A stretch of DNA of 64,000 nt, taken from assembly GCA_963796275.1 (NCBI GenBank), contig CAWCKY010000004.1:1472001-1536000 (forward strand). The letters run 5' to 3'. The DNA is from an uncultured Acidobacteriota bacterium (GTDB taxonomy: Bacteria; Acidobacteriota; Blastocatellia; RBC074). This document shows, in pieces, positions 29,788-63,127 of this stretch; within the stretch, counting starts at the first letter, position 1; each line of letters starts with the position of its first letter. The translations under genes and the position numbers were made by a program. The notes under the pieces are model-generated. The model was given only the letters and a program-made list of their open reading frames with translations. It ran no database searches and was not told where the DNA came from.

Positions 29788-30162
29788 TCAATCGTTATTC
29801 CACTGAACGAGCTTTTCGAGCTCTGCTTGGGTAAAAGCTTTCTTCCTCGCCGGAAGACCGACTTCATCGCATTTCCGCCATAAAGTGGTACGTGACCAGC
29901 CTGTTATCTGCAGCACCTCATTCCTCTTATATATAGGCTTGGGAATTGGTTTATCTATACCGAACTCCTCAACTCTGTGCAGAGCTAAAAAAAGAGCGCG
30001 CAAATCAATCGCATGAATCTCCACGACGTAAGTCGCCATAGCTGAGCATTCACTACGTATATGCTTGACTACATCAATGAGGTGTTTGACGGCCTGACCT
30101 GCCTCCGCAGCGGATACCTCAGACATAAAACTTTTCTTTAGAGAAGCCATCTTCAAACTCAT
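29788..30162 (-). CDS. AlpA/excisionase-like HTH protein
   Basis: C-terminal KRNEVLQITGWSRTTLWRK resembles the AlpA/MerR-type winged HTH. It is the last gene of the virB operon and lies near the att site. Confidence 0.6.
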   Translation of the reverse strand: MSLKMASLKKSFMSEVSAAEAGQAVKHLIDVVKHIRSECSAMATYVVEIHAIDLRALFLALHRVEEFGIDKPIPKPIYKRNEVLQITGWSRTTLWRKCDEVGLPARKKAFTQAELEKLVQWNND

Positions 30163-30168
30163 ATCATT

Positions 30169-32291
30169 TCAGTATCGCAGCGCAAGTCCCTGTTCCATAT
30201 CGCGTGCAACATTGTGGCCTACGGAGCTGACAACAGACGAGAGTGCGCGCAATCTGGCAGCCTCGAAGGACGCGTCGCGAACTTGCGTGGCGGCGCTGAC
30301 CGCCCCGTTATAGCTAACCTTGTTTGCCTGCAAATCGAGTTGATACCCTTGATCAACACCGCCCTTGGCGACCGCCGCGCCGCGATTGGCTCCGGCAATG
30401 GATTGTGTTGCGCCGGCGATCTCCGCAAATGTCAGCCCCATAGAACGCCACCGGTTCGCATTAATCATTTCCCCGAGATAGGCTCCTTGATTTTGGGTGA
30501 GTGCCCATGATGCCGTCTCCTGGTTGGCTATCCTCGCATCGAACGCTTCAGTGAGCGCTCGCTGCTTTCCATCGGCGCGATTCTGAATAGCCTGATATTG
30601 TTGGTATAGCCCGTAAGCCCCTCCGCCAAGCTCTACGATGGAACCCGCTATACGACCCTGAAGAGTCTGCCTGCCGGTGTTGGAATCAGACAGTCCCGTG
30701 CGAACGGCTCCGCCAAGCCATTCCGATCCCTTGATGACCTTGGTTCCCAGCCAGCCCTGTGTGTCGGCGGCGCGATCGGTTTCGATATTGGAGCTCTGCT
30801 GCTTGCGCTCCGCTTTCATATCGGCTATCGCCTGATCGTTGCGCGCCCAGATGTCTCTCGTGTTCAATCTGGCCAGGGCGGAGGCGCTCTCATTGGCATA
30901 CATCCTCTCAGTGTTTATCGTGCCTACCGCTCGCAGAAATCCACCGTAGGTTCCTTCCACCGAAGAGATGCGGTTCCCTTCGATTCCGGTGATGCTTCGA
31001 ATCCGATTGGACAGAGCGCTGAGTTTCCCGGATTCATATGCGGCCCCGGCGCGCGTCAACTCGCCCATGAATTGTCCCTGCGCCTGAACCCTCTCAGCCT
31101 GACTGCTGATTGAGGCCGCCATCGCGGAGCTGTACAACTCGATCCCCGCTCCGACCAGAGCGCCGGCCCAGCCCGAGACGGTCGACGAGACTGATTCGTA
31201 GACCTGCCCCATCGCTACTTTCTAAGCGATCACCGGCGACATCCAGAGCGACAGCCCGGCGATGGTCATTATCACTATTGCGATGATGACCGTGTAGAAC
31301 GGTTCCGCGCCGGAGGTCATGATCTCTGCCCATGGTCTGCGGGTCCCACTGATAGACAACATCGCTGGCGTCCAGTGACATCGCCAGGTTGCCTCCCATA
31401 TAGGCGAAAGCTCTGATCAATTGGGCAACGACCGGCCAGATAAGCGTTAAAACAATCGTTCCCCACAGAAACGGGTAGGAAATTTTGTTCGCCAGATTGC
31501 GGTCGATCGCCAGCGCGATCATCAGCGGCGCAGCCAGCTTCACGGCGATCATCAGAAACCCGCCGATCAGCCAGCAGGTACAGGTCCCCGAAAGCAAGAA
31601 TTCCTCGCGCGAAACTCAAGATCGAGAAGAGCAACGGCAGATCGCGCGAGATCGTCTCGAACTTTTTATTGACTCCTTTAGGTGAGGCGACCACATCCCG
31701 TAGCACGCCGAGCACGGCTTCTCCTCCGCCCGGGCGTGGCTTCAACTTCTCGCCCGTGGGTTCGACTGTGAAATGCCCTCTGGTGAATCTGCGGTAACCC
31801 GCTTCAAAGCTCTTGCGATGATTATTGTAGAACCTGTACAGAACGTTATTACTGGTCCCGCTTCCGCCCCAGGCAATCTCCTGCCCAATCAGGTCGAGTT
31901 TGCTGACGATTGCCGGTCCGCTCCCCGCCAACACGAAAATGACGGCGACTCTCCCGAACCACCAGAAAAGATCGGCGCCAGCGCCCGAGTTCTCCCGCCA
32001 CATCCGGGCGAAGCCGAAAAATATGACGAGCATCGCCAGCCACCAGGCGAGGTTTTCCAGCCAGGGCAGGAGAGGGCCTTCGATCTCGTTCTCCAGCACC
32101 GGTATGAGTGCGCCCGCCCGGCCGATCAGCCTGTCGAAGAATTGCGGCAATGAACTGCCCGCCGGGCTCGTGGGCGCCGGAGGCGGCGTGGGATTGGGCG
32201 TCTGAGCGAACGCGGACAGACTCAAGCAACCGGCCACCGCCGCGATGAACAGGATGGAAATTATTGATCGCTTGATTTTGCCTGCTCTCAT
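30169..32291 (-). CDS. VirB6/TrbL-like polytopic membrane protein (frameshifts near 31575 and 31330/31215)
   Basis: ORFs 31317-32291, 31094-31597 and 30169-31212 join into signal peptide, multiple TM helices (KLAAPLMIAL) and a Gly/Ala-rich tail. Follows the virB5-like gene. Confidence 0.7.
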
Positions 32292-32300
32292 AATTCGTTC

Positions 32301-33149
32301 TTAGTTGACCTTGCTGAGCGCCCTTTGAAGCACATCGAGCGAGTCGTTGAATTGGCTCCAGGCATCATTCAGAGACTCCACCTGCTCGCCGAACATTCCC
32401 CGCTCCTCCATCTGGATGTTGTACTCCCTGACGCGATTCTCGATCTGGCAACGAAGATCCTCGATTTCGGATTCAAGCTGTGCAATCAGCAACTCGTAGC
32501 TGGCCAGTTCTTGAGTGAGACTGGCGATGCACGACGCGCACCTCTGGTCCTCGGGCGCTTGCTCCTGTTTCGTGAGGTTGATTCTCGCCTCCTTTTGTTT
32601 TCCCTCCGCCCATGCTTTCTTATACATCTTGTATTTCAGTTCGCGCTGCAGCAGTTCAAGCTGATTATCCATTCGAATGAGTCGTTCACGATTGGCGGCG
32701 AGGTCTTGGCTGCTCCGCCCGATGGAATTTCTCAGATACTCGTCTAGATCTCTGAGATCGGCTTCCGGATCGAAGATGCCGTTGCGAAGCCGGTCGTCGA
32801 TCCTCTTAATCATGTTCAATCGCGTCGTAACGATGGCCTCGAGCTGATCCTTTAACTGAAACGACGCACGCACAGTCCTTCCGATGTTGCTCATCGTGGT
32901 GATCGCATTTTTTTGCTTCAATACGAGGTCATCGGCGGCCTTGAGCACACCGCCCAGCGTGGTAAGCTGGTTAACAAGATTCGTGTAATGCTGAAGCCAT
33001 CGATTTGCTTCTTCTACTTTCTTTGCGACCTGAAGCGTGTATTGCGCCGGGTCGTAGACTGTCCACTGCGCCTGTGCTTGTGGCGGTATAAGCAGAACGC
33101 CGATCAGCAGCCCCAGCGCGAACTGACGAAGGAGAGATTTTCTTTTCAT
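32301..33149 (-). CDS. VirB5/TrbJ-like secreted helical protein
   Basis: Signal peptide ending AQA-QWTVYDPAQY (TrbJ/VirB5-type V.DP.N motif), coiled-coil body, position after virB4. Confidence 0.7.
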   Translation of the reverse strand: MKRKSLLRQFALGLLIGVLLIPPQAQAQWTVYDPAQYTLQVAKKVEEANRWLQHYTNLVNQLTTLGGVLKAADDLVLKQKNAITTMSNIGRTVRASFQLKDQLEAIVTTRLNMIKRIDDRLRNGIFDPEADLRDLDEYLRNSIGRSSQDLAANRERLIRMDNQLELLQRELKYKMYKKAWAEGKQKEARINLTKQEQAPEDQRCASCIASLTQELASYELLIAQLESEIEDLRCQIENRVREYNIQMEERGMFGEQVESLNDAWSQFNDSLDVLQRALSKVN

Positions 33150-33179
33150 TACTACCTCACTTCCTCTCACGAATCATAT

Positions 33180-36011
33180 TTATAAAAGCGCCTCGTCTAT
33201 CTCGATCAGTCCTCGCGCCGCCAGTCCTCGCGGATAGACAGTGGCCAGCCACGCTATAACCTTTGTCAGCGGCCAATCCCGCCTGAGCGCCGATACTCTA
33301 GCCCTCGCGTTACGCTCATATGGATTGGTGGTGAACGTCCACAATTCGGCGGGCGAGAGATCGAGTTGGATCATCTCCACGATCTGATCCTGTCCCGATC
33401 CGAGCGCCAGGACGTATTGCGCATACTCTCCCGCGATGTTGTGGATCGCGCTGATCGCCGCCGCCGCGTTTTCCGACAACCCGGCGTCCGCAATCAGCTG
33501 CGAACAATCGCCGATCTGCTTGCCGATGACCTTGATACCGGCAGTCTTCGTGACATCGTGGATTCCGGCAAAGTCTTCGTATGCATGCGTCGCCAGCATC
33601 GTCACGACCGCCTCTTTGCGGCCCATGCGAGCTCCTTTTTTGATCACCCGCAGAATCTCAGGGTACTGCGCCGCGATCTTCCAGACCTCGTCAAAGATCA
33701 GAAGCGCCGGCGTTCGCGTCCCGTCCGATTTGAGCCGGCCTATCGAACGCACCACTCGAGCCGCGACACGATTTGCCAATGTCTCGCGCACGTCCTGGGG
33801 GAAGGCGTCCAGACTGTCGAGTTCATAAACGTCATACGGCGAATCTGCGGCAAAGTCGGGATGCGTCGGCGCATCGAGCCAGGGATGGTCGCGATACTTC
33901 TCCAGGGCCAGCGCCAGCGTCGCGGCGCGCTCGCGCAATCCCACCGTCTGGAATGGATAACTTTCGAGCATCGCAAGCAGATGCGAATGCACTGGCTCGT
34001 GTTTCGGTCTGTCGTGGCCGTTCCGAGGAACTTCATTCCTGTAGACCTCGGTGATGACATTGGTGAGGATATCTTCCGCCACGTTGTCATCCGGCTTGCC
34101 CCTGGCCAGTTTCATCGCATCCATCACGACCAGCGCGATCTGCGTCTCGTCGGGCATCTCTCCCAGCTCCAGCCCCGGATAGTCCCAGACGTTAATGGCG
34201 CGCTTATCGTCTATGCTGAAGCGAAGATGTCTCCCTCTCGTCACATCGGCGTGCGGGCCCAGCGACTCTCCAAAATCCACGGCGCGCACCAGCGCTTCCG
34301 GCAAGGTCGCGAGCACGTCATTGATGACGCGGGCCATGAATGTCGATTTACCGCTCCCCGGCTCGCCGAGCACGAGAGCGAGCGGAGAGCTGATCTTCGC
34401 GCTGTCAAAGAGGTTCAGGCCGATCAACCTTCCAGTCGGCGTCGAGCAGAGCGTGTGCGGCCTCCGCGCTCCTTCCCATGCCGATTCAACCGGGGCGAGC
34501 GCGGCGAGCGATCCCGCGACCTCGGTGATCTCCCTGCCCATCGGTCGATGATCTGCTTCGCCGACGATCGCCCGGTGATATAAGGCACGCAGGGAATCCG
34601 GTTCCTCGCGCGCCGCCTCCACTCCGGGGATCGATTGCATTGCTGTGACCATCTGCTCGCAATACCTGTCGAGATTGTCGAGAGACTGCCTCAGTTCACC
34701 TCGCGTGCGTGCCGGTTCCGCGTAGATGACGGCGTAGAAACGCGTATCGATCAGCGCTTCTCTCGATCCGGTGACGTGATCGCGAACGGTTTCGAGATCG
34801 AGCAGCGCCGCGCGCGCTTCCGGTGACTGCTTCACACGCCCGTCCGCGCGTGTGTACGAGCGTCGTACCTGGCGTATGCGCCGGTCGAGACGTTTTGTGG
34901 CCTTGCGTTGGTCGAGGTATGTGAACTCGGCGATGATCGTGTGGCGAAAATTGAGTGACGGATTCAATGTCAATGAGCGCAATGCATCGGCCGTAATCGC
35001 CGGCTGCGGTGGAGTGAACATCGAGACGATCGCCGCTGGATGTGCCCCGTGCATAATGTGCGAGCCGCTTCCGTCTATCGTCTCGCCGCAGAGATATTCA
35101 CGAATGTCGAAGCCCGGCACAACTGGCAGTATCGGAACACTCCGCGCATTCTGCCTGTGGCCCAAATAGATCGCCTCCCACAACTCTTGCCGGTTGAAAC
35201 GCCGCAGTGACAACGGACATTCGCGCTCGATGAGGCGAAAGACCTTCTCCGCCCTCCCATACGCTTCCCGTTCATCTTTGAGGAGCCGGCGCACCACGCC
35301 GTCGTCGGCGGTCTCCGCCCAGATCGCGCGAATTGTTTTGGGAAGTTTCGTAATGCCGTGCTTTCCAACCTCATCCAGAGCGGCGGGAATGAACGCGCTC
35401 AATCCGCTGTTTGTATCATCTCCCTTCTGACGAACCGGCACGCGCGCCCAGATCGAGAGCGCCTGCCGGCGATAGCTGTGCGCCGCCGCCGCTGCCGCAT
35501 AGAAATCGATATTCATCGCGTGCAGCAGTGCCGCTTCAGGATGCACCAGCGCGGGATCGCCCAAGGCCGCAATATGCGCGTTGATCGCGGCGCCAGGGTC
35601 GGGACCGGACGAAAAACGGAACTGGATCACCGTCCCTGGCGGCTTGTCCACGGCGAGCATTCGCGCCAGTTCGTCACAACGTGCCTCAACGACATGTTCG
35701 TGCGCGAGCATCGTCGGCGCCGTCTGCGCCTCCCACGCGCACGTGTAGGATCCGTCGGTGTGCCGCAGAGCGCCGTCGCAAAATCCGGCAATGGAAGAGT
35801 CGCGCTTTCGACCCGGAGGTGAGGCGAGTTTCAATCGTTCTTCTTTATGTTCCGCAATTCGCCGGTGAAGTTCCGCTTCCTCGCTCCGCTTCCATGCTTG
35901 CAAATCTCGACGGGCGCGAAGCGCGATGGGCAGCAGACGCGATCCGGCGCTGATGCCCAAACCCGCGCCTGCCGCCGCGATGGCGCCTCCGATGATCGTT
36001 AACGGTTCCAT
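33180..36011 (-). CDS. virB4: VirB4-family T4SS ATPase
   Basis: 943 aa. Walker A GEPGSGKST, VDFG, INVWD, Walker B LLIFDEVW, RMGRK, C-terminal TTNPYER. Confidence 0.85.
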   Translation of the reverse strand: MEPLTIIGGAIAAAGAGLGISAGSRLLPIALRARRDLQAWKRSEEAELHRRIAEHKEERLKLASPPGRKRDSSIAGFCDGALRHTDGSYTCAWEAQTAPTMLAHEHVVEARCDELARMLAVDKPPGTVIQFRFSSGPDPGAAINAHIAALGDPALVHPEAALLHAMNIDFYAAAAAAHSYRRQALSIWARVPVRQKGDDTNSGLSAFIPAALDEVGKHGITKLPKTIRAIWAETADDGVVRRLLKDEREAYGRAEKVFRLIERECPLSLRRFNRQELWEAIYLGHRQNARSVPILPVVPGFDIREYLCGETIDGSGSHIMHGAHPAAIVSMFTPPQPAITADALRSLTLNPSLNFRHTIIAEFTYLDQRKATKRLDRRIRQVRRSYTRADGRVKQSPEARAALLDLETVRDHVTGSREALIDTRFYAVIYAEPARTRGELRQSLDNLDRYCEQMVTAMQSIPGVEAAREEPDSLRALYHRAIVGEADHRPMGREITEVAGSLAALAPVESAWEGARRPHTLCSTPTGRLIGLNLFDSAKISSPLALVLGEPGSGKSTFMARVINDVLATLPEALVRAVDFGESLGPHADVTRGRHLRFSIDDKRAINVWDYPGLELGEMPDETQIALVVMDAMKLARGKPDDNVAEDILTNVITEVYRNEVPRNGHDRPKHEPVHSHLLAMLESYPFQTVGLRERAATLALALEKYRDHPWLDAPTHPDFAADSPYDVYELDSLDAFPQDVRETLANRVAARVVRSIGRLKSDGTRTPALLIFDEVWKIAAQYPEILRVIKKGARMGRKEAVVTMLATHAYEDFAGIHDVTKTAGIKVIGKQIGDCSQLIADAGLSENAAAAISAIHNIAGEYAQYVLALGSGQDQIVEMIQLDLSPAELWTFTTNPYERNARARVSALRRDWPLTKVIAWLATVYPRGLAARGLIEIDEALL

Positions 36012-36358
36012 ACCACTTGTCTTTCACCCCCGATGATCCATCGCCGCCTCGGCTGTCGCGCTCTATCTATCGGGAGCGCGCGCCGATGGATCGGGCTTGT
36101 AAACATTGCGCGTGACCTGTGCTGCAGCCAATAAGGACGCCGCCCAATACGCGCGTAGTTGAAGAAGGCTATGGAGAGCGCCGCTGCGCTCAGTCCCGTC
36201 CACAATTCCAGCGGCGCTCCCCATAGCTTCAGGTCGAACAGAAACGGCGTCGAGTAGGCGATCAGCGTGGCCACAATGACGAACTTCCAGTCCGAGATGA
36301 GCACGCCGAATCGCGCCACCGGCAAGTAGATGTTCGGCCTGATCGATCTAAGCCTCAT
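35999..36358 (-). CDS. VirB3-like small membrane protein
   Basis: MRLRSIRPNIYLPVARFGV..., two TM helices, overlapping the virB4 start. Confidence 0.6.
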   Translation of the reverse strand: MRLRSIRPNIYLPVARFGVLISDWKFVIVATLIAYSTPFLFDLKLWGAPLELWTGLSAAALSIAFFNYARIGRRPYWLQHRSRAMFTSPIHRRALPIDRARQPRRRWIIGGERQVVWNR

Positions 36359-36372
36359 GACTTGTCCCCGCT

Positions 36373-36780
36373 TCAATTTCCCAGATCGGTATCTAAATTG
36401 ACTGCATTCCCCTGGCTGAAACTGTAGATGAGCGACAGGATTCCACCCAGGCTCATACAAATGCCTCCGCCGAGCATCTGCCTGCCCCAAGCCTTTTCCA
36501 TCATGATGTTCGCCGAACCCCATCCCACGCCGCCGACGCCCAGAAGGAAGAGCAGGTTCCGCCCCCATCTGATCGCCTCCCGCACGCCGCTGCCCAACTG
36601 CTGATCATTGCCGCCGAATAGATTGCCGCCAGGCGTTTGCGCAAACGCGGGAACGGTCATCAGTAACACGGTGGCGACAAGGATCAACACAGGTTCAATA
36701 GCCCCAATCAGAACGGCGAGTTGAACAAATGAACGACCCGCTCTGGCAACGCGCGAGCGTTCAAACAGGTCGTCATCCAT
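36373..36780 (-). CDS. VirB2/TrbC-like pilin (start uncertain)
   Basis: Signal ending VPAFA-Q, then two Gly-rich hydrophobic helices separated by a short basic loop. First gene of the virB2-B6 run. Confidence 0.65.
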   Translation of the reverse strand: MDDDLFERSRVARAGRSFVQLAVLIGAIEPVLILVATVLLMTVPAFAQTPGGNLFGGNDQQLGSGVREAIRWGRNLLFLLGVGGVGWGSANIMMEKAWGRQMLGGGICMSLGGILSLIYSFSQGNAVNLDTDLGN

Positions 36781-36950
36781 ATCGCAAATACCTGAACGCA
36801 AACGAATCCCTCTCAAGCTATACATATGCTCTACTCCATGGTCGATATGATTTGTGTCTGATTCGCCCGCCTTTTCGCCGCGACCGCACATCCGAATCCG
36901 CAGGAATAATTCCAAGAACTCACAGCGGGCAGTTGCGCTCACATAGCAAA

Positions 36951-36965
36951 TCAAACCTCGTGCCA
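36951..36965 (-). promoter_or_regulatory. Sigma54-like -24/-12 element heading the leftward virB operon
   Basis: Minus strand reads TGGCACGAGGTTTGA = GG-N10-GA (non-canonical -12). Confidence 0.4.
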
Positions 36966-37030
36966 CACATTCGCTTGCGGCATCGCTGTTGCTGAGTTAG
37001 CCTGTCGAACTATGTGATGGCGGAGGATGA

Positions 37031-37773
37031 ATGAAGAGGACTGAAAACATCCTGTATTGCAGAGATTTTCTTGTTGATGATTGCTACTACGGCCAGCTGC
37101 GCAAGAAAAAATGTCGAACGATCGCGTGCGAGCAAATGATCGCTCGCAACGAGGCGAAGCACCTGCGCTCGCGTCAAAACCTGATCAGGATTCTACGCGA
37201 TCAGCCGAGCTTCTGGATCGAGTTGCAGGCAATAGCGAGGCGGCTCAAAACAGAGCCCGCGTGGTTGTTGAATGTGATGGCGAGCGAATCATTGTTCGAT
37301 CATACAGCTCGCAATGGGCTTTCCGGACAGACCGCCACAGGATTGTTGCAGTTCATCGAGAGCACGGCGCGGAACATGGGGACGACCACCGAAGCGATCA
37401 GTCGAATGAGCCCTGTCGAACAATTGCGCTTGGTCGAGAGATACCTCACGCCGTTTTGCGGCCGTCTCAACAGCCTGGCCGATGTTTACCTGGCGGTTTT
37501 TCGAGGCTTCATCGTTAAAGGAGGAGATGCGACAGTACATCGCGCCTCTCGATAAATCAAGTAAGAGAGCAGCGTATCTATTCGTTAAACAGGTGGCTCG
37601 ATTTCGATGGTGACGGCAAGATATCCAAGGGCGAGCTGGCGCTCGCGGCGCTCGCCATCGGCCGATTCCAACCAATCACGCCACGGTCCGGCGGGAGACT
37701 CTATCGCAACCCTGCGGAAGCCCCTGATCCTAAGACTGAAACTCCACAGACCCGTTCGATCTATTTTCGTTAG
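37031..37773 (+). CDS. Lytic transglycosylase (VirB1-like), frameshifted; probable lipoprotein with C-terminal EF-hand-like loop
   Basis: WLLNVMASES, ATGLLQFIESTA, QLRLVERY. An alternate N-terminal frame reads LLMIATTASC. An alternate C-terminal frame reads NRWLDFDGDGKISKGEL up to TAG at 37773. Confidence 0.75.
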
Positions 37774-37875
37774 CTCAATTCTTGCCACTCAATCATCGTT
37801 CTCCGTTACGTTGCCAGTCACCTTTTGAACGCGGTGACTGATACTCGATCAGGCAGAAACCCCAAGCTTTACTTA

Positions 37876-38010
37876 GGCTGTCGGTGTATCCGACACAGCG
37901 CGTCGGATGTTCGACAAAAGGGGTCACAGGAAAACGAAGAATATGTTGAATGAAGCTATTATGCGAAGGAGAGCAAGAGGTGCCGAGACTATCGACACGG
38001 CAATATCTAG
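37876..38010 (+). repeat. ~135 bp diverged direct repeat, copy 1, with three TGTCGG-N4/5-CCGACA-type palindromes
   Basis: Aligns by eye with 46755-46887, including GTTGAAyGAAGCTATTATGyGAAG and the terminal CAATATCTAG. Confidence 0.85.
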
Positions 38011-38452
38011 GTAGGCCAGCTGTTTTACGGACTGTTTTACGTCTGGTAAGGGCGGAAACGAAAAAACAGGGCGCTTTAGCAGCTTTAGCGTTCTTCCCCC
38101 TATGACTTTAGTCCTCGGGTTTAGACGCTCCGCGTGTCACGCCCGGAGGCAGCCAGCGCTCAGCCGCCAGGTCGCGGTCCTGCTGCGAGATCTTCCCAAC
38201 AGTGTCCCTCGTAATCCAGTGCGCGATAGATCCGACTGCCCCAAAATCCTGGGGCCCGGGAATGATCTCTGCGCTTTCGGCCTTTGCCCGAGCGAATGTC
38301 CGTCTACGTCTTCGACGTAGTGAATTGGCTACGCTTTGAAGCGGTCCGAGAGTTGATTGAGCTTGGGTTGTTTGAACTATATCGTCCCATCAAAATCTAA
38401 CTTTGACAAAGTAGTATTAAGGAATGCGTCAATCACTATCTAGCGAAAACGA

Positions 38453-39043
38453 TTACGCCTCAACATTTCTGCCCGCCTGCTTACTTTTTAATTCCCTTTC
38501 TGCTTTTCCACAAACTTCAATTCCCAACATCCTGGCCTGCTCCACTAACTCCTGCCATTGTTCCTGCTCGCGCGCCAGGCGTTCCTTGACTTCGGCTTCT
38601 TGCTGAGCAATCTGCTGTCGCTGAGTGTCGAACCTCTGCCGGCCGCCCTCTGTCATCTTCATCTTCACCGTTTCCAACTGCGCCCGCTCGCTCGCTTCCA
38701 GGTCTGGCTGCCCCAATCGCTCGTCATACTCGGCCATTTCCTGGTTGAATCCACTATCTTGCGCTTCCAGCCGCTGTTTGACCTTTTGCGCCTGCTCGAT
38801 CTCGCGCTCCAATTGGGCCAGCTTCGCCTGCTGCGATTCGAGCCGGAGCTTAAGCATTTCGATCTTCAAACTTCGCACTTCCGCCGCCAGGCGCCGCACC
38901 AGGGCGGCGAGGTCCGGGACCTGCCGGGCAGCGTCATTCGCGGCAGTTGGCCCCGCAGTTTGGCCGTTGGTCTGCGCCCAACCTGTGACCGTGGCTATGA
39001 TCACCAGACAGGCAGTCGTCACAATCAATCTCGCTCGTTGCAT
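38453..39043 (-). CDS. Secreted coiled-coil hypothetical protein
   Basis: Signal peptide (TGWA-Q) and Glu/Gln/Arg-rich heptads; GGAG RBS upstream. Confidence 0.7.
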   Translation of the reverse strand: MQRARLIVTTACLVIIATVTGWAQTNGQTAGPTAANDAARQVPDLAALVRRLAAEVRSLKIEMLKLRLESQQAKLAQLEREIEQAQKVKQRLEAQDSGFNQEMAEYDERLGQPDLEASERAQLETVKMKMTEGGRQRFDTQRQQIAQQEAEVKERLAREQEQWQELVEQARMLGIEVCGKAERELKSKQAGRNVEA

Positions 39044-39209
39044 GTTTATCTCTCCGTGTGAAGCGCCTGTCGCCAGACACGGGTCATCAACTCAATGAAC
39101 GAGGCGGGAGGATTGCGAGCGATCTTCCCTGGCATCCGTCCGGCAGGATGCCCATCGCCACAATCCTCGTCGCTTCGCTCGCGCGTGGCGCCAATCGCTA
39201 TCAGCTCAC

Positions 39210-40206: not shown

Positions 40207-40253
40207 GTGGCTAGTGACGCGAAACTCCGCCGCGTATAGCTACCCGCGCGGAA

Positions 40254-48437: not shown

Positions 48438-48458
48438 GCTGCGAGCAAGGAGAAGATC

Positions 48459-52863: not shown

Positions 52864-52882
52864 TTCCGGAACCGAGGTTGTA

Positions 52883-54869: not shown

Positions 54870-55393
54870 ATTCCAACGGTAAAACCAGGCTGAGAATCTC
54901 ATTCGTTCTGCTCTGCTCGGCGCTTGGCGCGCTCGTCATTACACACGCCTCCGCATCCGTTATGGAAATATGGCAAGCGCGCCAGCAGACGCCGCGTCTG
55001 GCGGTTGACAGTCTGGTGAAAGCGCTCCGGACGTATCACCGGCAGACGGGAAGATTCCCTACCGACTTCCGCGAATTGGAGGTCCGCGTCTGGAAGCACA
55101 AGAACCCTCCCGACTTCGGCCCCGACGGTCGTAGCCTGTCGATCGCCAACTACCACTATATCTATCATCCGGCCGGCGTCCGCGTCTGCACGATCTGGAT
55201 CATCCCGACAGGGCCGCGTCGTGACGAGGGCGCCACCCACTTTCTGCTCCTCTATCCTGACAATCTCCGCCGCTGGAAAGGTTCTCCGCTCTCGCTCGAT
55301 GAAATCAGAACGCTGCCGCCGGTACCACAGTACCGTGAGATGGCGCTCTTCGGTATGACGGAACAGCCGCAGATCGGCCTGGCCAGGAAGTAG
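54866..55393 (+). CDS. Pseudopilin/GspG-like protein, paralog B
   Basis: N-terminal hydrophobic helix, then SLVKALRTYHRQTGRFPTDFREL (GspG-type AL..Y....G.FP....L) and NYHYIY...TIWIIPTG. Confidence 0.55.
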   Translation: MNSNGKTRLRISFVLLCSALGALVITHASASVMEIWQARQQTPRLAVDSLVKALRTYHRQTGRFPTDFRELEVRVWKHKNPPDFGPDGRSLSIANYHYIYHPAGVRVCTIWIIPTGPRRDEGATHFLLLYPDNLRRWKGSPLSLDEIRTLPPVPQYREMALFGMTEQPQIGLARK

Positions 55394-58300
55394 TGCGGGA
55401 AATTATGCGCGCCGTGGTCAAGGTCAAACCGATGGGAGGCAAGGGCGCTTCCCGCGTGGCTCGTTACATCGCGGAAAGCAAGCTCGATCCCGTTCGCGAG
55501 GGCAAACGACGCCCCTTGTTCTCGGACCGCGATGGCGATCCGGCCGGGAGCGACGACCGGACATATCGCAAAGCCGACCGGTACCTGAGCGGCGGTCGCG
55601 GTGCTCCGCTCAAGAAAAACCTCATCCATTTCTCGGTCAGCTTTCGCGAAGAAGATTTCAAGCGTCTGGGTGCAAGCGACGATGAACGCAAAGGTCGATT
55701 GCGCGATGTAACGCGCGAGGCCATGGCCGGGGTTCAAGACGATCTGAACGTGGCCGGCTGGCGATGGATCGCCGGAATTCACCTCAACACCCTTCATCCA
55801 CACATCCACATAGTCGGTCACAAAGAAGTTACCGACCGCGAGACGGCCCTGCCACGCCGCCTGGGAAAGCTTCCCAAATGGATGCTGCCCCACAAAGAGC
55901 GGGAGTCTGACACCGCGATCCAGCCGGTGGACGGCGGCATCGCCGGGCATTTCATCGCGGCGCTGAACCGGGGACAGGAGCGTGCGAGGGAGGCGGAACG
56001 AGCAAGAGAGGATATCGCTATGAGCCCCAATAAGACGAAAAAATCGATTTCTCGTAAAGCAGTAAGCGTGAGGAAGGCCGAATTCTACAGGAAGGATGAA
56101 GCGCGCAGACGCGCGAACCCTCCCTGGCTCGATCGCATGCTGGAGATCGCCTCCCGTAACCCATCGCTCGGCGGGCGAGAACTGACGCTGGACATCCTCG
56201 GGCGAGAATCGAGGCTGGAACCGAAGCACGTAGAACCGAACTCGACTGACGACAGGGTCCGAGAGGAACCGAACCCGACTGACGACATCCGCTCCGCTTT
56301 CGCCAACGGGGGTTTGGACAATTCAGACTATCGTACTCCGCGGGATCAAGCCGCGTGGTTGGGCGAATACAGCAAGAGCCTGCGTGATCTCTACGAGCGT
56401 GGCGCTGAGGTCAAAGGCGACACGCTGATCATCCCAGCTGAGGAGCATGAGGTTCCGGACGAGCGCGATCACATACGCGTCATCAGCATCTCGCACGCGT
56501 TCGAGAAGATTCGAGACCCGAAGCTCGCGATGGAATTTCATTCCCTCGCCCGCGCCATCGCCGGGGAGTCCGCCGACACGGGAACCGAGATCAAGTTCTT
56601 TAAGCAATACTACGATCTGATCGAGCTCGATGCCGAAGGTAACAGACTCGACCGCCAGGATAATAATTACGAGAAAGAGCGCATAGCGGCACTCGACCGG
56701 ACGCTTGGGGAGATGCGTTTTCTCGCCGGCGAGATGGCGAGACTGGAGACGAAAGTGAGTCTCGACATAGTCCCATCGATTATGGAGCGCTCTCACGTCT
56801 ACCGGCATATTCAGGATTACGAGCGGGCCTCTGAGTTCTATTCGCTCGCCCAGGTCATCGCCGGGCCGGATGCCGATCTGCAAAAAGAGACCCAGGTCTT
56901 CAGCTACTACTACGGCAAACTCGAGAGAGATGACGCGGGACACCTGTTGACTCCAGAGAACGAGGCCGGAAGGCTGCAAGCCATCGATCGGACGGCCGCG
57001 GAGATGCGCCACGCGATCGAGCAGAAGGCAGAGATACCCGAATATGACGGAATCGCTCATGCTGTGGTCTCCCTCGATGAAGCAGCGGAACGCGAGGACA
57101 GGCACGAAGAAGATGAAGAGCATTCATTCATCGACGATGCGATCGATTATGGAGCCGGTGATGACACGGATGATCTTGACGGACCGGAGTACGAATACAC
57201 TATCGAGGAAGCATACGGTGAGCGCGAAGCGGAGGCGGCGGCCTGGCAATTCAACACCGCCGCGCGCAAGGTCAACCTCAAGCAGCTGAGCTTTCCCGGA
57301 GGGCTGGCGCCCGCGACCAAAGAATGGTTGATCGAGTTCAAAATCCCGGAGATCGATAAGCGGATCGAGAACGGCGCCAGCCTCATCGATAAAAAAGATA
57401 AAGACGGGGCAGTGCTGGAAAAAGGCATATTGTCCGACATCAATCGACTGGTCCAGCCCGAACGCGTCGAAATGTTGCGAAGAGTATCGGAAGCGGCGGG
57501 GGTGCGTGGAGACGAAGCACTTGTTCGCGCACCTAATACCAATGATATCGCCGAAGCCAGGCGCATACTTCTCGAACTTTGTGCTCACGAGAAGAGCGAG
57601 TTGGAGCGCAGGCGCGAGTTGCGCTCGAGGCTCGATTCAAACGACGAACGTGATCCGGGAGAAGCACGGACAAGAGTAGACACGGGCAGCTCCTACGTCT
57701 TCAATGGCAATACAGCCGCCCGTCTCGGACATATCGAAAGATTTATCGATGGTGTCCAGAAAAACCAGGTCGAACCCGCCGCGGGCCGGAGATCGATCCG
57801 TCCTTCGGATTCCAGCCTCTATGTGAGCCTGTCGAGCGACGATGAAGCGCCGCGCCTGCCAGCCGGCAATATCCGCGTCTACGATGCGATAGAGAAAATG
57901 GCGACCGGGGCAAAGCTCCAATTGTCCACCTGGATCGGTAGAGACGGCCCGGCGCTCATCAACGGTTTTACGGAGAAAGAATATGATTATCGGGTGAAGA
58001 TCGCCGGGTTCCTCAGAAGCTACGTCCAGGAGCGCCTCCGCGACCCGGAAACCCGCATCGCTCACGACAACGAAGACTTCCGCATCGCCCGTAATGCGCT
58101 CGACCGTGCGCGTGATTATGGAGAACTCAACCGCACGGCTTATGCCTTCATGAGCAGGAACGAGCGTGAGGGCAGACTGCTCAGCGAACAGGAGCGCCAG
58201 CTGCTCTTCTACGGCCGCACTCCGGATCATTACAAACCGCAGATGAGAGAACTACGGCAAGCCTGGGGGTTGCCGCGAGAAGGGCGTGAACAGGCGCTGC

Positions 58301-60794
58301 GCGACGGGCGGCTGCCGCCGTCCGCGACACTCATCAAGATGACCGATGAGCTTGAATCGCGCCGCAACGTCGAGTCGGTACGCCAGTATCAGAAGTCCTT
58401 GACGACTCCTCCCGAACAGATGCGCAACCCTGGCAGACTGCCCCTGTACCAGATGCATAAAAAGCTACTGGGGCACGAACGGGATTATCTTTTCCATCTG
58501 ACCGAGGAGATGAAACGATACCTGCCGGGTAAAGAGCCTCCGGTTCGCGAAGCGGAAAAATCTCCCGATGAGGCGGCGACGGGTCGTGCGTTCGGCGAAG
58601 CCCCAAATGAGAGCAAGTCATACAAGGAATACCTGGCCTCACTCGGAGAGATCAAGCGGCGACTGCTCGAAGAAGCTGTTTCACGCTTAAATAATGATAG
58701 AGGTTCGATTAACCACGCCGAACAGGTCCGAGTTCACAATCGCGCCTGCGACCTCGCCTGGGAACGACTCACATCCGAGGAAGTCTTCTCTTCACGGCCT
58801 TCAGAGCAGGCCCTTCGTTTGAGCGATGTGATAGCAAAGCTACAGGAGGAAGCGCAACCTCGGGCCCGGCTGGCGACTCAGGTACTCGATGAGTTCAGCA
58901 AAGAGAACATCCCGTCTTACGCAAATGGCCGGGTTCCCAGGGACGCCCTGGAACAACTGGATCCGTCTCTCAAGGATCGCTATAAGCAGCTCAAAGACTA
59001 TGCAAGCAGGACACGCGAGAGCTGTATCGTGGCTTCGAGGCTATCGATGGGATACGGAAAGAGATTGAAAAAGCTCGCGCCGAAGAGCGGATGGCTGATC
59101 GGATCACTCTTGGCAATGCGATCGTCGCCGAAGCACGTTATGAATGTGCGAGACTGGACTATGAGACGGCGCGCGATCACGGCGAGACATTCCGTTTTCG
59201 TATTCGTGACGAAAGCCTGAAAGCTAACCGCAGGATATCCGCGTTCGACGTCGAACGGCGCGCGGATGCCCGAGGAACGAGGGCCGCCGGCGAACGCGGG
59301 GCCGATCGCGCGGAGGAGCGACGGGGCATCAGGCAGGAGGTCGCGGCGCTCGACCTGGTCAATCACGCGGCGACCCTGCTGGAGCACGGTACAGTTCAGA
59401 GAACCCGGGTCAACAAACTCAAGGCGGAATCCGACAGGGCCGCGTACGAGAGCCTGATGGCCCAGGATAGAGCTCAGGATGTCAGGGCGAAATATCAGGA
59501 ACGCGGGGAGCAGATTCCAGCCCCTTTCATCAAGCGAAAGACGCTGACCGAGACTCAGGAACTGACCGTCAGGCATGGGCTCGCGGGACAGACCGAAACG
59601 CTCGAACAAATACGTGTAGCGCAGTCGAAGGAATTCAATCGGCCCGCGCGTACGGAGACTGAAACGGCCCGCCTCCGGGCGCAGCTATACGTTGCCCTGA
59701 CCGACTTCCAGGTGAGAGAGGAACGTGCCTCGCGCTACGATCGAACGCGACATCTCAGGCAGTGGGAGTTCGGCGGTGAGAAATGGTCGCTGGCCGATGT
59801 CGACCGGAAAATCGAACGGCTATCCGATGATGGCAAGATATTCGGCAGATACGAGCTTCACCTTGATTCCCTTGACCGCGAATCCGCGAAAGACGAGATC
59901 GGACACCAGAAAGCGATAAGAAATGAGATCGTCGCCAGGACCACGGAGCATCAGGGCGAACTGCGCAATCAGAAAGAGAGAGCGGGCGAGCTTGTCCAGA
60001 CGCTTTCCATTGCCTATGAACGCGAATCGGAGCGTCGCGCACAAACCGGCCAGGAGATACCGAATCCGATATTCGCGCGAGACGAGCTCGAGCGCATTGC
60101 GGACAATGCCGCCACGACGCGCGACGCAGCGATGCTCAGGCAATTCTATGAGTTCGAACGAGGATTCAACAACTATGCCGCTCCGAAGGAACAAATCTCA
60201 CCGGAGCGGCAGCTTGCGCGTGCGCTCGGCCGCGAAACGATGGCGGAAGTCTTCCTTCACGAGAGCGCGGAAAGGCTCTCGAACTTCCGGGACAGGAAAG
60301 ATGTTCAGCCTCTTCTGGTCGAAATGCCAGACGGCCATCTCATCACCCGCAGGTACACGGACACACAGCCGCGGTCGCCCCTGGAGCGGATAGCCCACCC
60401 CTTGATCGAGACTCCGTCGGAGCGCGATATCCGTGAATCGGTAAGGACGGCTCTGCAACATCAGCAACACTACCTAACTGCCGACCTGGAGAAGAGTCGG
60501 GCCTACTTTGAAGCGGCGAGGGAGATCGCCGATACCCTTTCCTACGGCAGAGAAAATGGCAGTTATATAAACCCGCCTTCGCGGGAATTCTCGCCGAAAG
60601 AGGAGATGAACATCGAGGTCTTCGCCGAGCGGCTGACTGACGAGGGACAGCGGGAACATTACCTGAGCCTTGTCGACCCAGAGCGTGGTTCCGCCACATC
60701 CCGACACGATTCACATAACAATTCTGATCACCAGAGGGAGGCGGCAACGCTCTCCCCGGATATGCCTGTGCCCGGAGTGGCGCGCGGGCGCTAA
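55393..60794 (+). CDS. Large HUH relaxase (MobP/MobL-like), ~1800 aa after joining a frameshift near 59020
   Basis: VARYIA (catalytic Tyr), IHFSVSF, AGIHLNTLHPHIHIV. ORFs 55393-59220 and 59091-60794 overlap. C-terminus ends ARGR. Confidence 0.85.
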
Positions 60795-60824: not shown

Positions 60825-61097
60825 ATGAACGACAACCATTCTCAAGATCGCCAGCTTGCTGCCGAACCGGTGCAGGTATGGGTCTATCAGGACAACGTCG
60901 AGGCATTGATGAAAATCTGCGAGGAGGACGGGTTCCAGCCGGGCGAGGTGCTGCGGCACGCATTCGACGAGTGGCTGAGCAGGCTTCCCACCCTCACCGA
61001 ATTGTTCAGCGAGTCCATGCCGATATGCGATCCGGCTGAGACGACAGTTTCATCCAGTGAGAATCTCTTAGAAAGGATCCAGCGCGATGAATGGTGA
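60825..61097 (+). CDS. Ribbon-helix-helix (CopG-like) DNA-binding protein
   Basis: VQVWVYQDNVEALMKICEEDGFQPGEVLRHAFDEWL strand-helix-helix pattern; GGAGGAG RBS. Confidence 0.65.
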   Translation: MNDNHSQDRQLAAEPVQVWVYQDNVEALMKICEEDGFQPGEVLRHAFDEWLSRLPTLTELFSESMPICDPAETTVSSSENLLERIQRDEW

Positions 61098-61172
61098 ATC
61101 CCAATTGCGAGAGCGAGACCGCCGAACAAGCCCAGACAATCAAGACAAAGAGAGGAGGCGTCGGAATCTGCT

Positions 61173-61691
61173 GTGAAGAATAACACTAATGGCCGCCTGC
61201 TCGGTCAAACGTGCTCCTGTCGGCCCTACCAGGACAACTATGACGAGATTATAAAAATCTGCGAGCAGACAGGGCGCAAGCCCGCCGAAGTGCTGCGAGA
61301 TGCCATAGACGAGTGGCTGCTCATGCGCCATGGTTCCGAAACTGGCAGCGACGTCCTGCCATCAGACAACCGGCGGAGCGATCTTGGGGAGGAGATCAAG
61401 GAACTGCGTGAGGACATCAGGCGGCTCGCAGAGCGACAAGAGAAGTTGGTCAAAAGCCTCGACTATGTGCAAAGACGGGACCACGGATATCTGCTCGAAA
61501 TCTTCATGGCCGCCTATGGAGCGAGAGACCTGATATGGAGGGACATCTCAAACAGGATGCGCCATGGCAGACAGATGCCGGAATCGATTCAGGCGCAGTA
61601 CGAGGCTTTCGAGCAGGAATGGAGCGCACAGTGCGATGCGACGGCGGAGCAGGATCAAAGAGATTATCCGGAAAGGAAGACCTCATGCTGA
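61173..61691 (+). CDS. RHH protein with coiled coil (relaxosome accessory-like)
   Basis: CSCRPYQDNYDEIIKICEQTGRKPAEVLRDAIDEWL, paralogous to the previous gene. Confidence 0.65.
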   Translation: MKNNTNGRLLGQTCSCRPYQDNYDEIIKICEQTGRKPAEVLRDAIDEWLLMRHGSETGSDVLPSDNRRSDLGEEIKELREDIRRLAERQEKLVKSLDYVQRRDHGYLLEIFMAAYGARDLIWRDISNRMRHGRQMPESIQAQYEAFEQEWSAQCDATAEQDQRDYPERKTSC

Positions 61692-62474
61692 GACTTGATA
61701 TCGACCGTCCTGACGGCTCATCTGGACTCCGGAGCCGGATCGAGAGCGTCTACGATCGGATCGCGGGCAATGACGACTACCAGCGAAACGACCGTAGCCT
61801 CAAACTGATCCAATTCTGCGTAATCACAGTGAGCGCCGGTGCGACCGGATTTGTGAACGCGTTCGCTCACACGGAAAGACTCGGGTGGATCGGCGCGAAC
61901 TTACTGGCGGCCCTCATCACAGGATTCGTCGAGAAGTTCTACTTCACTCTGCGACACGGACTCGTGACTATCTACAGGTCGAGAAAGCAACGATTCGCCG
62001 CAAAACTCTGCTACCGGGCGATTCAGGCGACGATGATCCTCAATGCGACGATCCTCTGCGCCTGGGTAACTGGGATTACGCTGCCAGAGATTTTTCAAAG
62101 CTGGAATAAGCTTTCAATCGCCATACATTTTGGATTGGCCCTGATAGGAGTTTCGGCGGTGCGTGATCATGATGCGGTCACTGAGAGCCGCATCCGTGAA
62201 CTGAAGGCGGACGCCGCGCGTGAGGACATCGTCACGATCCGTAGGGCTGCCGCGGGAGACAGCCCATTTCCTATTGCTTGCGGCAAAACTCAGAGGATGG
62301 CTCGATGGAATCAATTTGGCTTTCGAACTCCTGCGCGACAAGACAGGAATCTCTGCCAACAACGTTAAACAGATCAGCTTCGGCCCAGACGGCACGTACC
62401 TGTTAGGCGGGAATGACGAGATAAACCAGGAAGGCAACCTGACTGATATCTCGGGAAAACGCCTGCGCCGGTGA
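61685..62474 (+). CDS. Four-TM hypothetical membrane protein (frameshift near 62270)
   Basis: Four hydrophobic segments in ORF 61535-62368; C-terminus continues in ORF 62220-62474. Confidence 0.6.
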
Positions 62475-63127
62475 GCGTTGAGCCAGCCCTTATGCCTGGA
62501 GCAGACCCTCAGCTTCAGGCGCCGCCACCGGCGCAAAGCAATCTGTCCGACCTGGCCGTCTCTGGAGCCACCGGATCAAATGGGCGATCAGAGGATGAGC
62601 AAGAAACCGTATATGTGCGGGGGAGCAATGAAGAACAACCGGGGGAGCATTTGGGGGAGCAGGCCTTAGAGGACACCGGTAATCCGGGGGAGCAAATGAT
62701 CGAGATCGACCGAGGGAGCAAGAACGTGAATACGGAGGAGCAATCCACACTCAAACGGGGGAGCAGTAATGAGAGGATGGGGGATTCTGCATCCGCCGGT
62801 GAAGATATGGTGGATGCGCCGGCATCGCAATGGTTGAAAACATTGTTGCCAGAAGGATCCGGTGGATGGTGGGACGTTTACCCGAAAGACAACGGTTTTG
62901 CAGTCAGGTTCCGCTGGCGCGATCAAGGGCGGCAAACGCTCACCTTTCCACAAATTAGTTACCAACATCTGCAAGAGTTGAAGCAGAGTAGCCCCGATGA
63001 AACAGGAATGAAAATAAACGAGCGAATTACAGACAGCCTTCGCAAATATTTACTCGATCCGGAAAAACGCAACAAAGCCATGCTCGTCGCTCGGAAACTT
63101 GGGATCGATCTCGATGACTCGCAATAG
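62471..63127 (+). CDS. Hypothetical protein: disordered N-terminus, C-terminal three-strand plus helix domain (Arm/AP2-like DNA-binding candidate)
   Basis: GTGA overlap with the previous gene; GWWDVYPKDNGFAVRFRWRDQGRQTLTFPQISY. Confidence 0.55.
   Translation: MSVEPALMPGADPQLQAPPPAQSNLSDLAVSGATGSNGRSEDEQETVYVRGSNEEQPGEHLGEQALEDTGNPGEQMIEIDRGSKNVNTEEQSTLKRGSSNERMGDSASAGEDMVDAPASQWLKTLLPEGSGGWWDVYPKDNGFAVRFRWRDQGRQTLTFPQISYQHLQELKQSSPDETGMKINERITDSLRKYLLDPEKRNKAMLVARKLGIDLDDSQ
62592..62765 (+). repeat. Array of eight CGGGGGAGCA-type direct repeats inside a CDS
   Basis: Copies start at 62592, 62618, 62640, 62652, 62685, 62711, 62733 and 62756. Confidence 0.85.

Follow-up and report, generated by a model that had tools for sequence, protein, structure and literature searches.

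A candidate undescribed type of conjugation system in Acidobacteriota, with a MoxR-type ATPase after VirB10 and pilin-fold proteins beside VirD4

Eight classes of mating-pair formation (MPF), defined by VirB4, are used to type conjugation systems, and the question raised by the locus described here was whether any of these could accommodate it. The window, i.e., the whole stretch of DNA analyzed, comprised 64,000 nucleotides of contig CAWCKY010000004.1 (hereafter C4) from a genome of Blastocatellia (Acidobacteriota), and a transfer module occupied 29.8–63.1 kb of it (Table 1). An earlier reading of the nucleotides without database searches (the sequence-only reading) had proposed an undescribed MPF type, a split type IV secretion system (T4SS) lacking VirB11 and endowed with a MoxR ATPase and two pseudopilin-like proteins around virD4. 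The explanation that we consider probable as a whole is that the window carries part of a predicted integrative conjugative element (ICE) with a diderm-type T4SS, a VirB4 from a deep and almost exclusively acidobacterial lineage that could be assigned to none of the seven MPF classes sampled, and three fixed lineage-specific genes, which code for an AAA+ ATPase (MoxRL) and two pilin-fold membrane proteins (A and B). As an undescribed MPF type the system is a well-supported candidate, not a proven one, in a comparison with seven of the eight classes.

The VirB4 of the window was compared with TraC of F, TraU of R64, TrwK of R388, TrbE of R751, PrgJ of pCF10 and TcpF of pCW3, together with three Bacteroidota TraG proteins (above the TIGR03783 cut-off), ten acidobacterial VirB4 proteins (379–515 bits with VirB4_CagE) and the MPF_C locus of the Nostoc plasmid alpha. 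The trees covered seven MPF classes; for MPF_G, 121 genomes from a different phylum were searched for a TIGR03744 reference and yielded none. In the maximum-likelihood tree of 31 VirB4 sequences (LG+G4), the Blastocatellia family was recovered with 100/100 support and joined a second acidobacterial lineage with 81/92, both of them lying outside an MPF_T clade of 12 sequences (TrwK, TrbE and the 10 acidobacterial proteins) that was itself supported at 100/100. The F, I and B references attached at an unresolved base, the three TraG proteins formed a 100/100 clade of their own, and PrgJ and TcpF were distant. The topology held when MPF_C was added, with no join between it and this lineage. The check by a VirB4 tree, set out in the sequence-only reading, came out in favor of a separate lineage, outside MPF_T, distinct from the references of MPF_F, I, B, FA and FATA and, in the maximum-likelihood tree, also from that of MPF_C. 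Furthermore, phmmer at E ≤ 10 found no match between the window VirB4 and nine reference or MPF_T-like sequences; the T, F and B references matched one another at 15–72 bits, TrbE and TraC excepted, and the second lineage matched five classes at 21–62 bits.

No curated VirB4 model came near its cut-off with the window protein, the best being TraC-F-type (64.9 bits, cut-off 567). VirB4_CagE, the model for MPF_T, gave 45.4 bits (45–46 bits vs. a cut-off of 643). As for MPF_F, TraC of F branched apart and the F-specific families TraH, TraU, TraW, TraN and TrbC were absent from the Pfam scans of the locus. TraU of R64, representing MPF_I, gave no phmmer match and sat on a separate branch, and neither the TraG model of MPF_B (TIGR03783) nor the traC_PFL_4706-type model of MPF_G (TIGR03744) was among the matches at E ≤ 0.01. 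With conju_CD1110, standing for MPF_FA and MPF_FATA, 28.5 bits were obtained vs. a cut-off of 325, and the locus has the VirB9- and VirB10-like parts of a diderm system. A search of 72,556 plasmids with the window VirB4 yielded 162 matches, the best of them at E 1e-7 (an IncHI-like TraC, 23% identity over 43% of the query); in the control, Bacteroidota TraG had at least 5000 matches.

Database relatives of the window VirB4 numbered 410 at E ≤ 0.001, and the few named ones were from Blastocatellia or Acidobacteria. Among 401 evenly sampled genomes of the phylum, 19 had a VirB4 match at E ≤ 1e-20. Of these, 14 belong to the same class as the window (whose genome is one of them); the other five come from a single family in a different class and are about 26% identical. 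No VirB4_CagE-type match at E ≤ 1e-40 was present among the listed genomes of the window's class. One genome per species was scanned for the 189 confirmed relatives, and gene junctions were counted in the best 80 loci, almost all of them from metagenome-assembled genomes (MAGs) of Blastocatellia, Pyrinomonadaceae or Chloracidobacterium. A hidden Markov model was used for each protein and only loci with room for the next gene were counted, the others ending at contig or flank ends. On this basis, the VirB8-like gene was followed by the VirB9-like gene in 55 of 55 loci and this by the VirB10-like gene in 53 of 53; the ATPase gene came after the latter in 51 of 51 and was itself followed by A in 51 of 51. 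VirD4 succeeded A in 45 of 46 loci (the exception being L052), and B succeeded VirD4 in all 37. This gene order is far beyond chance. The conservation of a MoxR-like and of two pilin-like genes in homologous loci, on which the sequence-only reading had made its proposal depend, was therefore borne out by these counts, as was the position of the ATPase after VirB10. The three extra genes were retained across VirB4 divergence down to 33% identity. In the seven loci of the class that were fetched in full, the VirB8-, VirB9- and VirB10-like genes, the ATPase and A were consecutive in all seven, with VirD4 and B next in six. Spacers in seven intact loci ranged from −70 to +29 nt, except for a −280 overlap between the VirB10-like gene and the ATPase in one genome (G354), where the longest-ORF (open reading frame) start was overcalled; other starts used for the spacers may likewise be overcalled.

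One rival explanation, to which we assign a small chance, is that the system is a fast-evolving, VirB-like offshoot of MPF_T in which the ATPase, like A and B, is a dispensable addition, so that no new class would be involved. With MPF_T, as represented by R388 and R751, the locus has in common the order VirB2-3-4-5-6 and VirB8-9-10, which mirrors the virB operon, then an ATPase gene and the coupling protein, as well as an SLT gene and weak, sub-threshold matches to TrbI and TrbJ. One acidobacterial T4SS was also placed basal in MPF_T by Guglielmini 2012 (PMC3548315). The second acidobacterial lineage is intermediate on VirB4_CagE, with 141 bits vs. 46 for the window and 200–515 for the acidobacterial MPF_T-like proteins. 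This lineage comprised six loci in five genomes, with VirB4 about 26% identical to that of the window and, as conservation evidence for the explanation that we consider probable, the ATPase gene 5.6–6.5 kb from VirB4 in all six; one of its gene rows contained the ATPase, SLT, a protein of 310–340 aa and VirB10 (TrbI 39 bits, above the cut-off), and the other a VirB3-like protein, VirB4, two proteins of about 290 aa and a TrbL-like protein. In two of the loci an integrase gene lay beside the ATPase. Nevertheless, the MPF_T clade, 10 acidobacterial members included, excluded both lineages at 100/100, the window VirB4 had no phmmer match to TrwK or TrbE, the other sub-threshold matches were to Bacteroidetes families (DUF4141, TraM, DUF4138), and the extra genes had been kept even where VirB4 was only 33% identical. 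The locus differs from MPF_T in its parts too: R388 carries VirB11 (a P-type DNA transfer ATPase) after VirB10, whereas the window carries an AAA_5/MoxR-type ATPase, and in the window pilin-fold proteins flank VirD4, no VirB7 was recognized and the genes form two divergent operons.

The MPF_C locus on plasmid alpha of Nostoc PCC 7120 has a VirB-like operon with a very divergent VirB4 (VirB4_CagE 28 bits, vs. 46 in the window). As in the window, its VirB10 gene and VirD4 are separated by two genes, and VirD4 is succeeded by a small gene and then by one for a large protein; the layout of MPF_C is described in PMC4027160 as resembling VirB, although its VirB4 is far removed. However, homologues of the ATPase, A and B were lacking there by hmmsearch --max (the best match, of the ATPase profile to a 539-aa ATP-binding protein upstream of VirB4, had 6.9 bits and E 0.002 and was not significant; the others had E ≥ 0.19), its relaxase is of the MobV type, its VirB4 took another position in the maximum-likelihood tree, and beyond the weak VirB4 similarity no accessory proteins were common to both. 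Toward MPF_B, sub-threshold likeness was seen for DUF4141 (VirB5-like protein), Transposon_TraM (VirB10-like protein) and DUF4138 (VirB9-like protein), but the TraG model of this class did not match the window VirB4 and its TraG references formed the separate clade mentioned above.

The lack of VirB11 was confirmed. A single PF00437 gene was found in the 9.46-Mb genome, on contig C6, and none on C4; since this sole T2SSE-family gene (PilB/PilT/GspE/VirB11) lies on another contig, no virB11 is hidden beyond the window. However, lacking VirB11 is normal outside MPF_T, where VirB11 is rare (19%; PMC4027160). What follows the VirB10-like gene instead is an AAA_5/MoxR-superfamily ATPase, read from two frame pieces (51181–51885 and 51887–52186), which scored above the AAA_5 cut-off. 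Across 10 of 10 aligned ATPases there was no variation in the GxxGxGKT P-loop or the DExDK box, which we take to be Walker A and Walker B, and the protein bears a C-terminal helical extension. Its nearest solved sequences were midasin AAA domains and NorQ. With the MoxR/AAA_5 family (NorQ/CbbQ, midasin AAA domains, GvpN and the NCBIfam MadB) it has the AAA_5 domain, the P-loop and the DExDK box in common, but its MadB_ATPase score (96.6 bits) is far below the cut-off of 475 and it was found only in T4SS loci: a profile search of five genomes at E ≤ 1e-6 gave seven matches, all seven inside such loci. A closer MadB relative, unrelated to the T4SS copies, is encoded on the same contig (C4:803307–804137; 280 bits, also below the cut-off of 475), and a literature search for MadB returned only unrelated papers.

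Proteins A and B were examined as structural models. The AlphaFold2 model of B (predicted local distance difference test, pLDDT, 82.7) shows a helix of residues 3–61 packed on a five-strand sheet, and in that of A (pLDDT 79.5) a transmembrane (TM) helix is joined by a disordered linker to a head made of helix and sheet. Pilins or pseudopilins made up the top 9 structural matches of A and 9 of the top 12 of B. What the two have in common with type IV pilins and with the pseudopilins of type II secretion is a long helix at the N-terminus that packs against an antiparallel sheet. In contrast to these, the class III signal (G/FTLxE; G−1, hydrophobic +1, E+5) was found in 0 of 93 sequences of either protein under a strict definition, and under a loose one in 0 of 93 for B and 2 of 93 for A; a disordered linker separates the TM helix of A from its head; and the locus has no prepilin peptidase, platform protein or T2SSE gene, no assembly-ATPase or platform-protein family appearing in its Pfam scans and no T2SSE gene on the contig. 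Neither protein has a Pfam pilin domain. Their database clusters numbered 300 for A and 683 for B, all the named ones being called hypothetical, and no Pfam domain was present among those listed. A and B are modeled as bitopic inner-membrane proteins with periplasmic domains of the type IV pilin fold. As the prepilin signal is absent, they are referred to as pilin-fold proteins and not as pseudopilins; of the two pseudopilin-like proteins that had been proposed around virD4, the fold and the conserved order (51 of 51 for A, 37 of 37 for B) stood, and the pseudopilin character did not. The two were compared by hhalign (probability 6%, E 0.006), and a paralogous origin is not claimed. One homologue of A (P0242) lies on a 6.99-Mb contig and is assigned by NCBI to "Leptolyngbya sp. 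7M", either a mislabeled or contaminated record or a sign that the family reaches a cyanobacterial culture.

The three genes could also form a separate hitch-hiking module for entry exclusion, surface adhesion, regulation or anti-defense, lying outside the secretion machine, an explanation to which we allow a slim chance. MoxR-family ATPases are general remodeling chaperones, no homologue of the three proteins appears among the parts of R388, R751, F, R64, pCF10 and pCW3 in their annotation tables, and A and B were not found in the second lineage. Against this stand the interleaving of the genes with VirB10 and VirD4, with spacers of −70 to +22 nt in seven loci, the invariant order in 51 of 51 and 37 of 37 loci, and the restriction of the ATPase subfamily to T4SS loci (7 of 7 matches, five genomes).

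If the three proteins instead belong to the machine, as we consider probable, the following scheme may be proposed. The element would be excised by its own integrase, the relaxase would nick the excised element, and VirD4 would feed the DNA to an envelope channel formed by the VirB6-, VirB8-, VirB9- and VirB10-like proteins and powered by VirB4. The AAA+ ATPase, presumably a hexamer, would act in the gene slot of VirB11, either as a non-homologous stand-in for it or as an assembly chaperone. That it is a third cytoplasmic motor or remodeling factor has, in our estimation, close to an even chance; a role as assembly chaperone for the VirD4-proximal membrane parts is a less favored, rather unlikely option. 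A and B would stay uncleaved and anchored in the membrane, as periplasmic parts of the inner-membrane region or the stalk next to VirD4. The boldest formulation, which we offer tentatively and would not back at even odds, is a ninth MPF class confined to Acidobacteriota, in which a MoxR-type AAA+ hexamer replaces VirB11 and uncleaved pilin-fold proteins were recruited around the coupling protein. If this were true, such a mixture of T4SS and type-IV-filament building blocks would not have been described for any conjugation machine. Nothing combining MoxR with VirB4 and conjugation was found in the library searched, none of the taxon terms Blastocatellia, Pyrinomonadaceae and Chloracidobacterium occurred among the literature matches listed, and a term search of the 2025 nomenclature review (PMC12857230) found neither MoxR nor pseudopilin.

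Several observations weigh against the explanation that we consider probable. The deep VirB4 branches are long and unresolved and MPF_G is missing from the trees; when this lineage and the one MPF_C sequence are joined in a clade, the arrangement is not rejected by an approximately unbiased (AU) test (p 0.37). In the second lineage the ATPase gene is the first of its operon, before SLT and not after VirB10, and no homologue of A or B was detected in those loci. One sub-lineage (G386, L052) is without VirD4 and B after A. The pilin-fold matches had middling Z scores (7.1–7.8), a range that the tool calls common, and Foldseek found no PDB match for either model at E ≤ 0.001. A VWA partner is typical of MoxR-family ATPases, and no VWA family appeared in the Pfam scans of the locus proteins. 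The VirB6- and VirB8-like proteins had no Pfam or hhalign support, the VirB9-like protein no Pfam, PDB or hhalign support, and the VirB2- and VirB3-like proteins no Pfam match or other significant sequence support. Finally, the analysis drew on sequences only, and expression, excision and transfer are predicted. Even so, the proposal that the conjugative machine is specific to this lineage and has conserved parts outside the canon came through every attempt at refutation that could be made.

Such a machine widens the known variety of bacterial conjugation systems and fits no textbook class among those compared. A MoxR-type ATPase in the VirB11 slot, with pilin-fold proteins next to VirD4, constitutes a natural experiment on the purpose of the third T4SS ATPase and on coupling-protein docking. 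Acidobacteriota are among the most abundant soil bacteria and, to our knowledge, CONJscan, MOB-suite and similar tools see only the eight established classes. Should current profiles miss this VirB4 family, too little gene flow is being counted in a major soil phylum.

The integrity of the window copy had also to be considered, as the module has at least 10 frame breaks, affecting the VirB6-like, SLT, VirB8-like, VirB9-like, ATPase, A and relaxase genes and the ORF at 47157–47601, as judged from the paralogues of the same genome (the C2 and C3 copies described below) and from the closest relative, L036. Together with a TAG stop in the regulator of the region between the operons, these breaks could suggest a decaying, non-functional remnant made of pseudogenes, which we find hardly credible. 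In the same assembly, the matches to rpoB fall into 7 pieces and those to rpoC into 5, and internal stops are present (C6:1266086–1274032); essential genes cannot be pseudogenes, and the breaks are therefore assembly indel errors. In addition, the sister copies are broken at different places, the loci in other genomes are intact, and short-read contigs of relatives (90–99% similar; relatives, not this strain) lack single letters of the window within A, namely those at 52370 (two runs) and 52496 (three runs). No homopolymer context was evident at the approximate break sites. With so many indel errors in the assembly, every ORF of the window needs a frame-aware reading.

The module is part of an element of about 111 kb inserted in a tRNA-Phe gene. 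The 32 nucleotides of the tRNA 3′ end have an exact repeat (47 nt if one mismatch is allowed) on the same contig, 111,008 bases downstream, and an integrase gene lies just inside that far repeat; this places the left 36 kb of the element in the window. To the left of the tRNA gene are housekeeping genes (Pta, DedA-type, HD, Dus). The features expected of an ICE are present, namely att repeats (one within a tRNA gene) that enclose a site-specific recombinase gene, and a relaxase (above the Pfam cut-offs in a homologue), a coupling protein (VirD4, 133 bits) and VirB4 (weak but consistent) together. Short contigs of relatives from public runs (90–99% likeness) included none spanning 47000–55500 and no joint or attP form, in a stretch that excludes the att sites; among the public runs listed, none of RNA contained the stretch. 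The genome carries three paralogous copies of the module, those of the window, of C2 (about 686–712 kb) and of C3 (about 52–77 kb), with VirB4 identities of 72–74%; an integrase gene adjoins the C3 copy (C3:78345–78824).

Table 1. Features of the transfer module and of the element that contains it (window coordinates unless a contig is given; C4 is the contig of the window and G000 its genome).
Feature	Coordinates	Strand	Remarks
tRNA-Phe	28350-28425	+	ARAGORN; 3′ part 28393-28424 = attL
AlkZ-like DNA glycosylase	28554-29630	-	229 bits; first element gene beside attL
orf124	29788-30162	-	HTH_17 E 0.087 and AlpA E 0.18 only (insignificant)
VirB6/TrbL-like polytopic membrane protein	30169-32291	-	Single gene split over three ORFs by frame breaks near 31326 and 31571
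VirB5/TrbJ-like protein	32301-33170	-	TrbJ NF010448 E 1.4e-4; DUF4141 E 4.5e-4
VirB4 ATPase	33180-36011	-	943 aa, intact
VirB3-like small membrane protein	36021-36421, inside ORF 35999-36568	-	1-2 hydrophobic segments
VirB2-like pilin candidate	36376-36831, inside ORF 36373-36966	-	Long leader and two hydrophobic helices
SLT lytic transglycosylase (VirB1-like)	36911-37782	+	Pfam SLT 30 bits, cut-off 21.3; frame break near 37546
Copy-specific cargo insert	37783-47156		About 9.4 kb; between the divergent operons
SpvB/Tc-toxin-type N-terminal domain fragment	41827-42279	-	150 aa, truncated; Pfam SpvB 59 bits
Winged helix-turn-helix (wHTH; Trans_reg_C)-AAA_16-TPR regulator	42533-45614	+	Three ORFs; frame change near 45174-45187
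Small conserved ORF upstream of VirB8-like	47157-47601	+	Frame break; matches 163-aa ORF of L036 in two frames
VirB8-like bitopic protein	47742-48434	+	Single N-terminal TM segment; two compensating frame breaks
VirB9/TraN-like periplasmic protein	48459-49698	+	Signal peptide; frame break near 48600
VirB10/TrbI-like protein	49695-51122	+	Intact; TrbI 21 bits, E 3e-4; TM 68-86, then long linker
AAA_5/MoxR-superfamily ATPase (MoxRL)	51181-52210	+	AAA_5 46.8 bits, cut-off 22; frame break about 51886
Pilin-fold membrane protein A	52207-52863	+	Three frame pieces; start overlaps ATPase stop
VirD4 coupling protein	52883-54718	+	Intact; T4SS-DNA_transf 133 bits, TraG-D_C 72 bits
Pilin-fold membrane protein B	54866-55393	+	Intact, 175 aa
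Relaxase	55393-60794	+	Large; N-terminal MobA/VirD2-MobL-type nuclease and long tail; two ORFs, frame break near 59100-59220
Two paralogous small ORFs	60825-61097, 61173-61691	+	Mutual match, E about 1e-9
Conserved membrane protein	61535-62474	+	Frame break; matches 263-aa C2 protein; hydrophobic stretches visible in translation
Conserved protein of unknown function	62471-63127	+	32-33% identical homologues after the membrane protein in C2 and C3
Tyrosine integrase	C4:1610111-1610605		0.8 kb inside far repeat
attR repeat	139401-139432 = C4:1611401-1611432		
Sole T2SSE-family (PilB/PilT/GspE/VirB11) gene found in the genome	G000:C6:1118604-1119774		

The gene content and order given by the sequence-only reading for the leftward virB2 to virB6 set and for the rightward set from virB8 onward were reproduced by the ORF map and the family scans. 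The SLT gene and the small ORF at 47157–47601, which were not in that list, also belong to the module; the 296-aa SLT protein of L036 aligned in two frames (36911–37537 and 37555–37782), and the small ORF had no significant Pfam match. Four assignments are strong, in the window or in a homologue: VirD4, the AAA_5 ATPase, SLT and the relaxase family. VirD4 reached 172 bits with conju_CD1115 (cut-off 250). For the relaxase, MobL and Relaxase were weak in the window, and the G362 homologue exceeded both cut-offs (MobL 34.4 bits, cut-off 28.5; Relaxase 26.3 bits, cut-off 24.6); both window ORFs mapped to a single 2177-aa protein of the C2 copy.

The VirB labels other than VirB4 and VirD4 had been assigned from motif and position. 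For the VirB6-, VirB8-, VirB9-, VirB3- and VirB2-like proteins no significant sequence match was added, although the topologies fit the labels; two labels gained support from hhalign: the VirB10-like protein vs. VirB10/TrbI/TraB/TraO (probability 45%, E 2.2e-4, 157 columns) and the VirB5-like protein vs. R388 VirB5 and R751 TrbJ (probability 50%, E 1.6e-4, 67 columns). A homologue of the VirB10-like protein also gave 22.9 bits with Transposon_TraM. The VirB6/TrbL-like label follows from position and topology; its three window ORFs mapped to single proteins of 617–746 aa in other copies, and the intact homologues have a signal peptide and 4–6 hydrophobic segments. The VirB3-like gene was kept beside VirB4 in 75 of 80 loci, and the VirB2-like gene was conserved in 74 of 80. 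In hhalign comparisons of the VirB9-, VirB8- and VirB6-like proteins with references of two or three sequences from R388, R751 and F, the probability was below 1%, a result of little weight with such thin profiles, and profile searches of PDB sequences with the VirB8-, VirB9- and VirB10-like alignments gave nothing useful. Two leads came from the ESM Atlas: 22 of the 30 nearest clusters of the VirB8-like protein have 13–18% of their members, as listed, with the VirB8 family (score 0.96), and the neighbors of the VirB9-like protein include clusters of DUF4138, the TraN of Bacteroidetes elements (0.91).

At the ends of the operons, orf124 had been called xis-like, a label that its insignificant HTH_17 and AlpA matches (E 0.09–0.18) do not sustain; it had no Pfam match at E ≤ 0.01 and no match in the C2 or C3 copy. 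The two paralogous small ORFs after the relaxase, previously labeled ribbon-helix-helix proteins, show a strand-helix-helix pattern in their sequence and have no Pfam support, so that label is unverified. The conserved membrane protein after them is the one previously called 4TM, and the last protein of the module (62471–63127) had no Pfam match.

Of the three copies in the genome, only that of the window has its operons far apart, and the "split T4SS" of the sequence-only reading turned out to be the product of an insertion. The matches of the SLT gene of L036 (86% VirB4 identity) end at 37782 and those of its small ORF resume at 47157, which sizes the insert at about 9.4 kb; it is missing from L036 and from the C2 and C3 copies, and the gap between the operons is 1.6–2.3 kb in these two copies vs. 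about 10 kb in the window. The insert contains a sigma-70-like gene, the SpvB-N-type fragment and the wHTH-AAA_16-TPR regulator (Pfam), with the in-frame TAG of the latter at 43133–43135 (motif C-L-*-Q-F-G-T-G-E-A-Y-L-P). In 62 related loci with both operon ends visible, the distance between the low-coordinate ends of the VirB8-like and VirB2-like ORFs was 1.6–2.9 kb in 56 and 3.2–7.2 kb in six; one further locus had nothing within 10 kb. Since enlarged gaps recur among these loci, the region between the operons is a recurrent cargo site.

Some individual loci departed from the general picture in other ways. In L025 (G101:C219), VirB4, the VirB5-, VirB6- and VirB8-like genes, the ATPase and A lie on one strand up to the contig end, with no VirB9- or VirB10-like gene between. 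Five loci bore unexpected taxonomic labels: L037 and L041, Gammaproteobacteria (77% and 76%); L038, Clostridia (75%, on a 727-kb contig); and L085 and L097, Bdellovibrionales and Ignavibacteriaceae (34–35%, on short contigs). Two of the five are contigs under 5 kb, and these labels are read as mis-binning or mislabeling, with transfer as the alternative. Additionally, several Pyrinomonadaceae MAGs (JAIBCB010000006.1, CALMYB010000010.1 and others) hold the module in two or three copies, in some cases on a single contig, and the element family appears to multiply within genomes.

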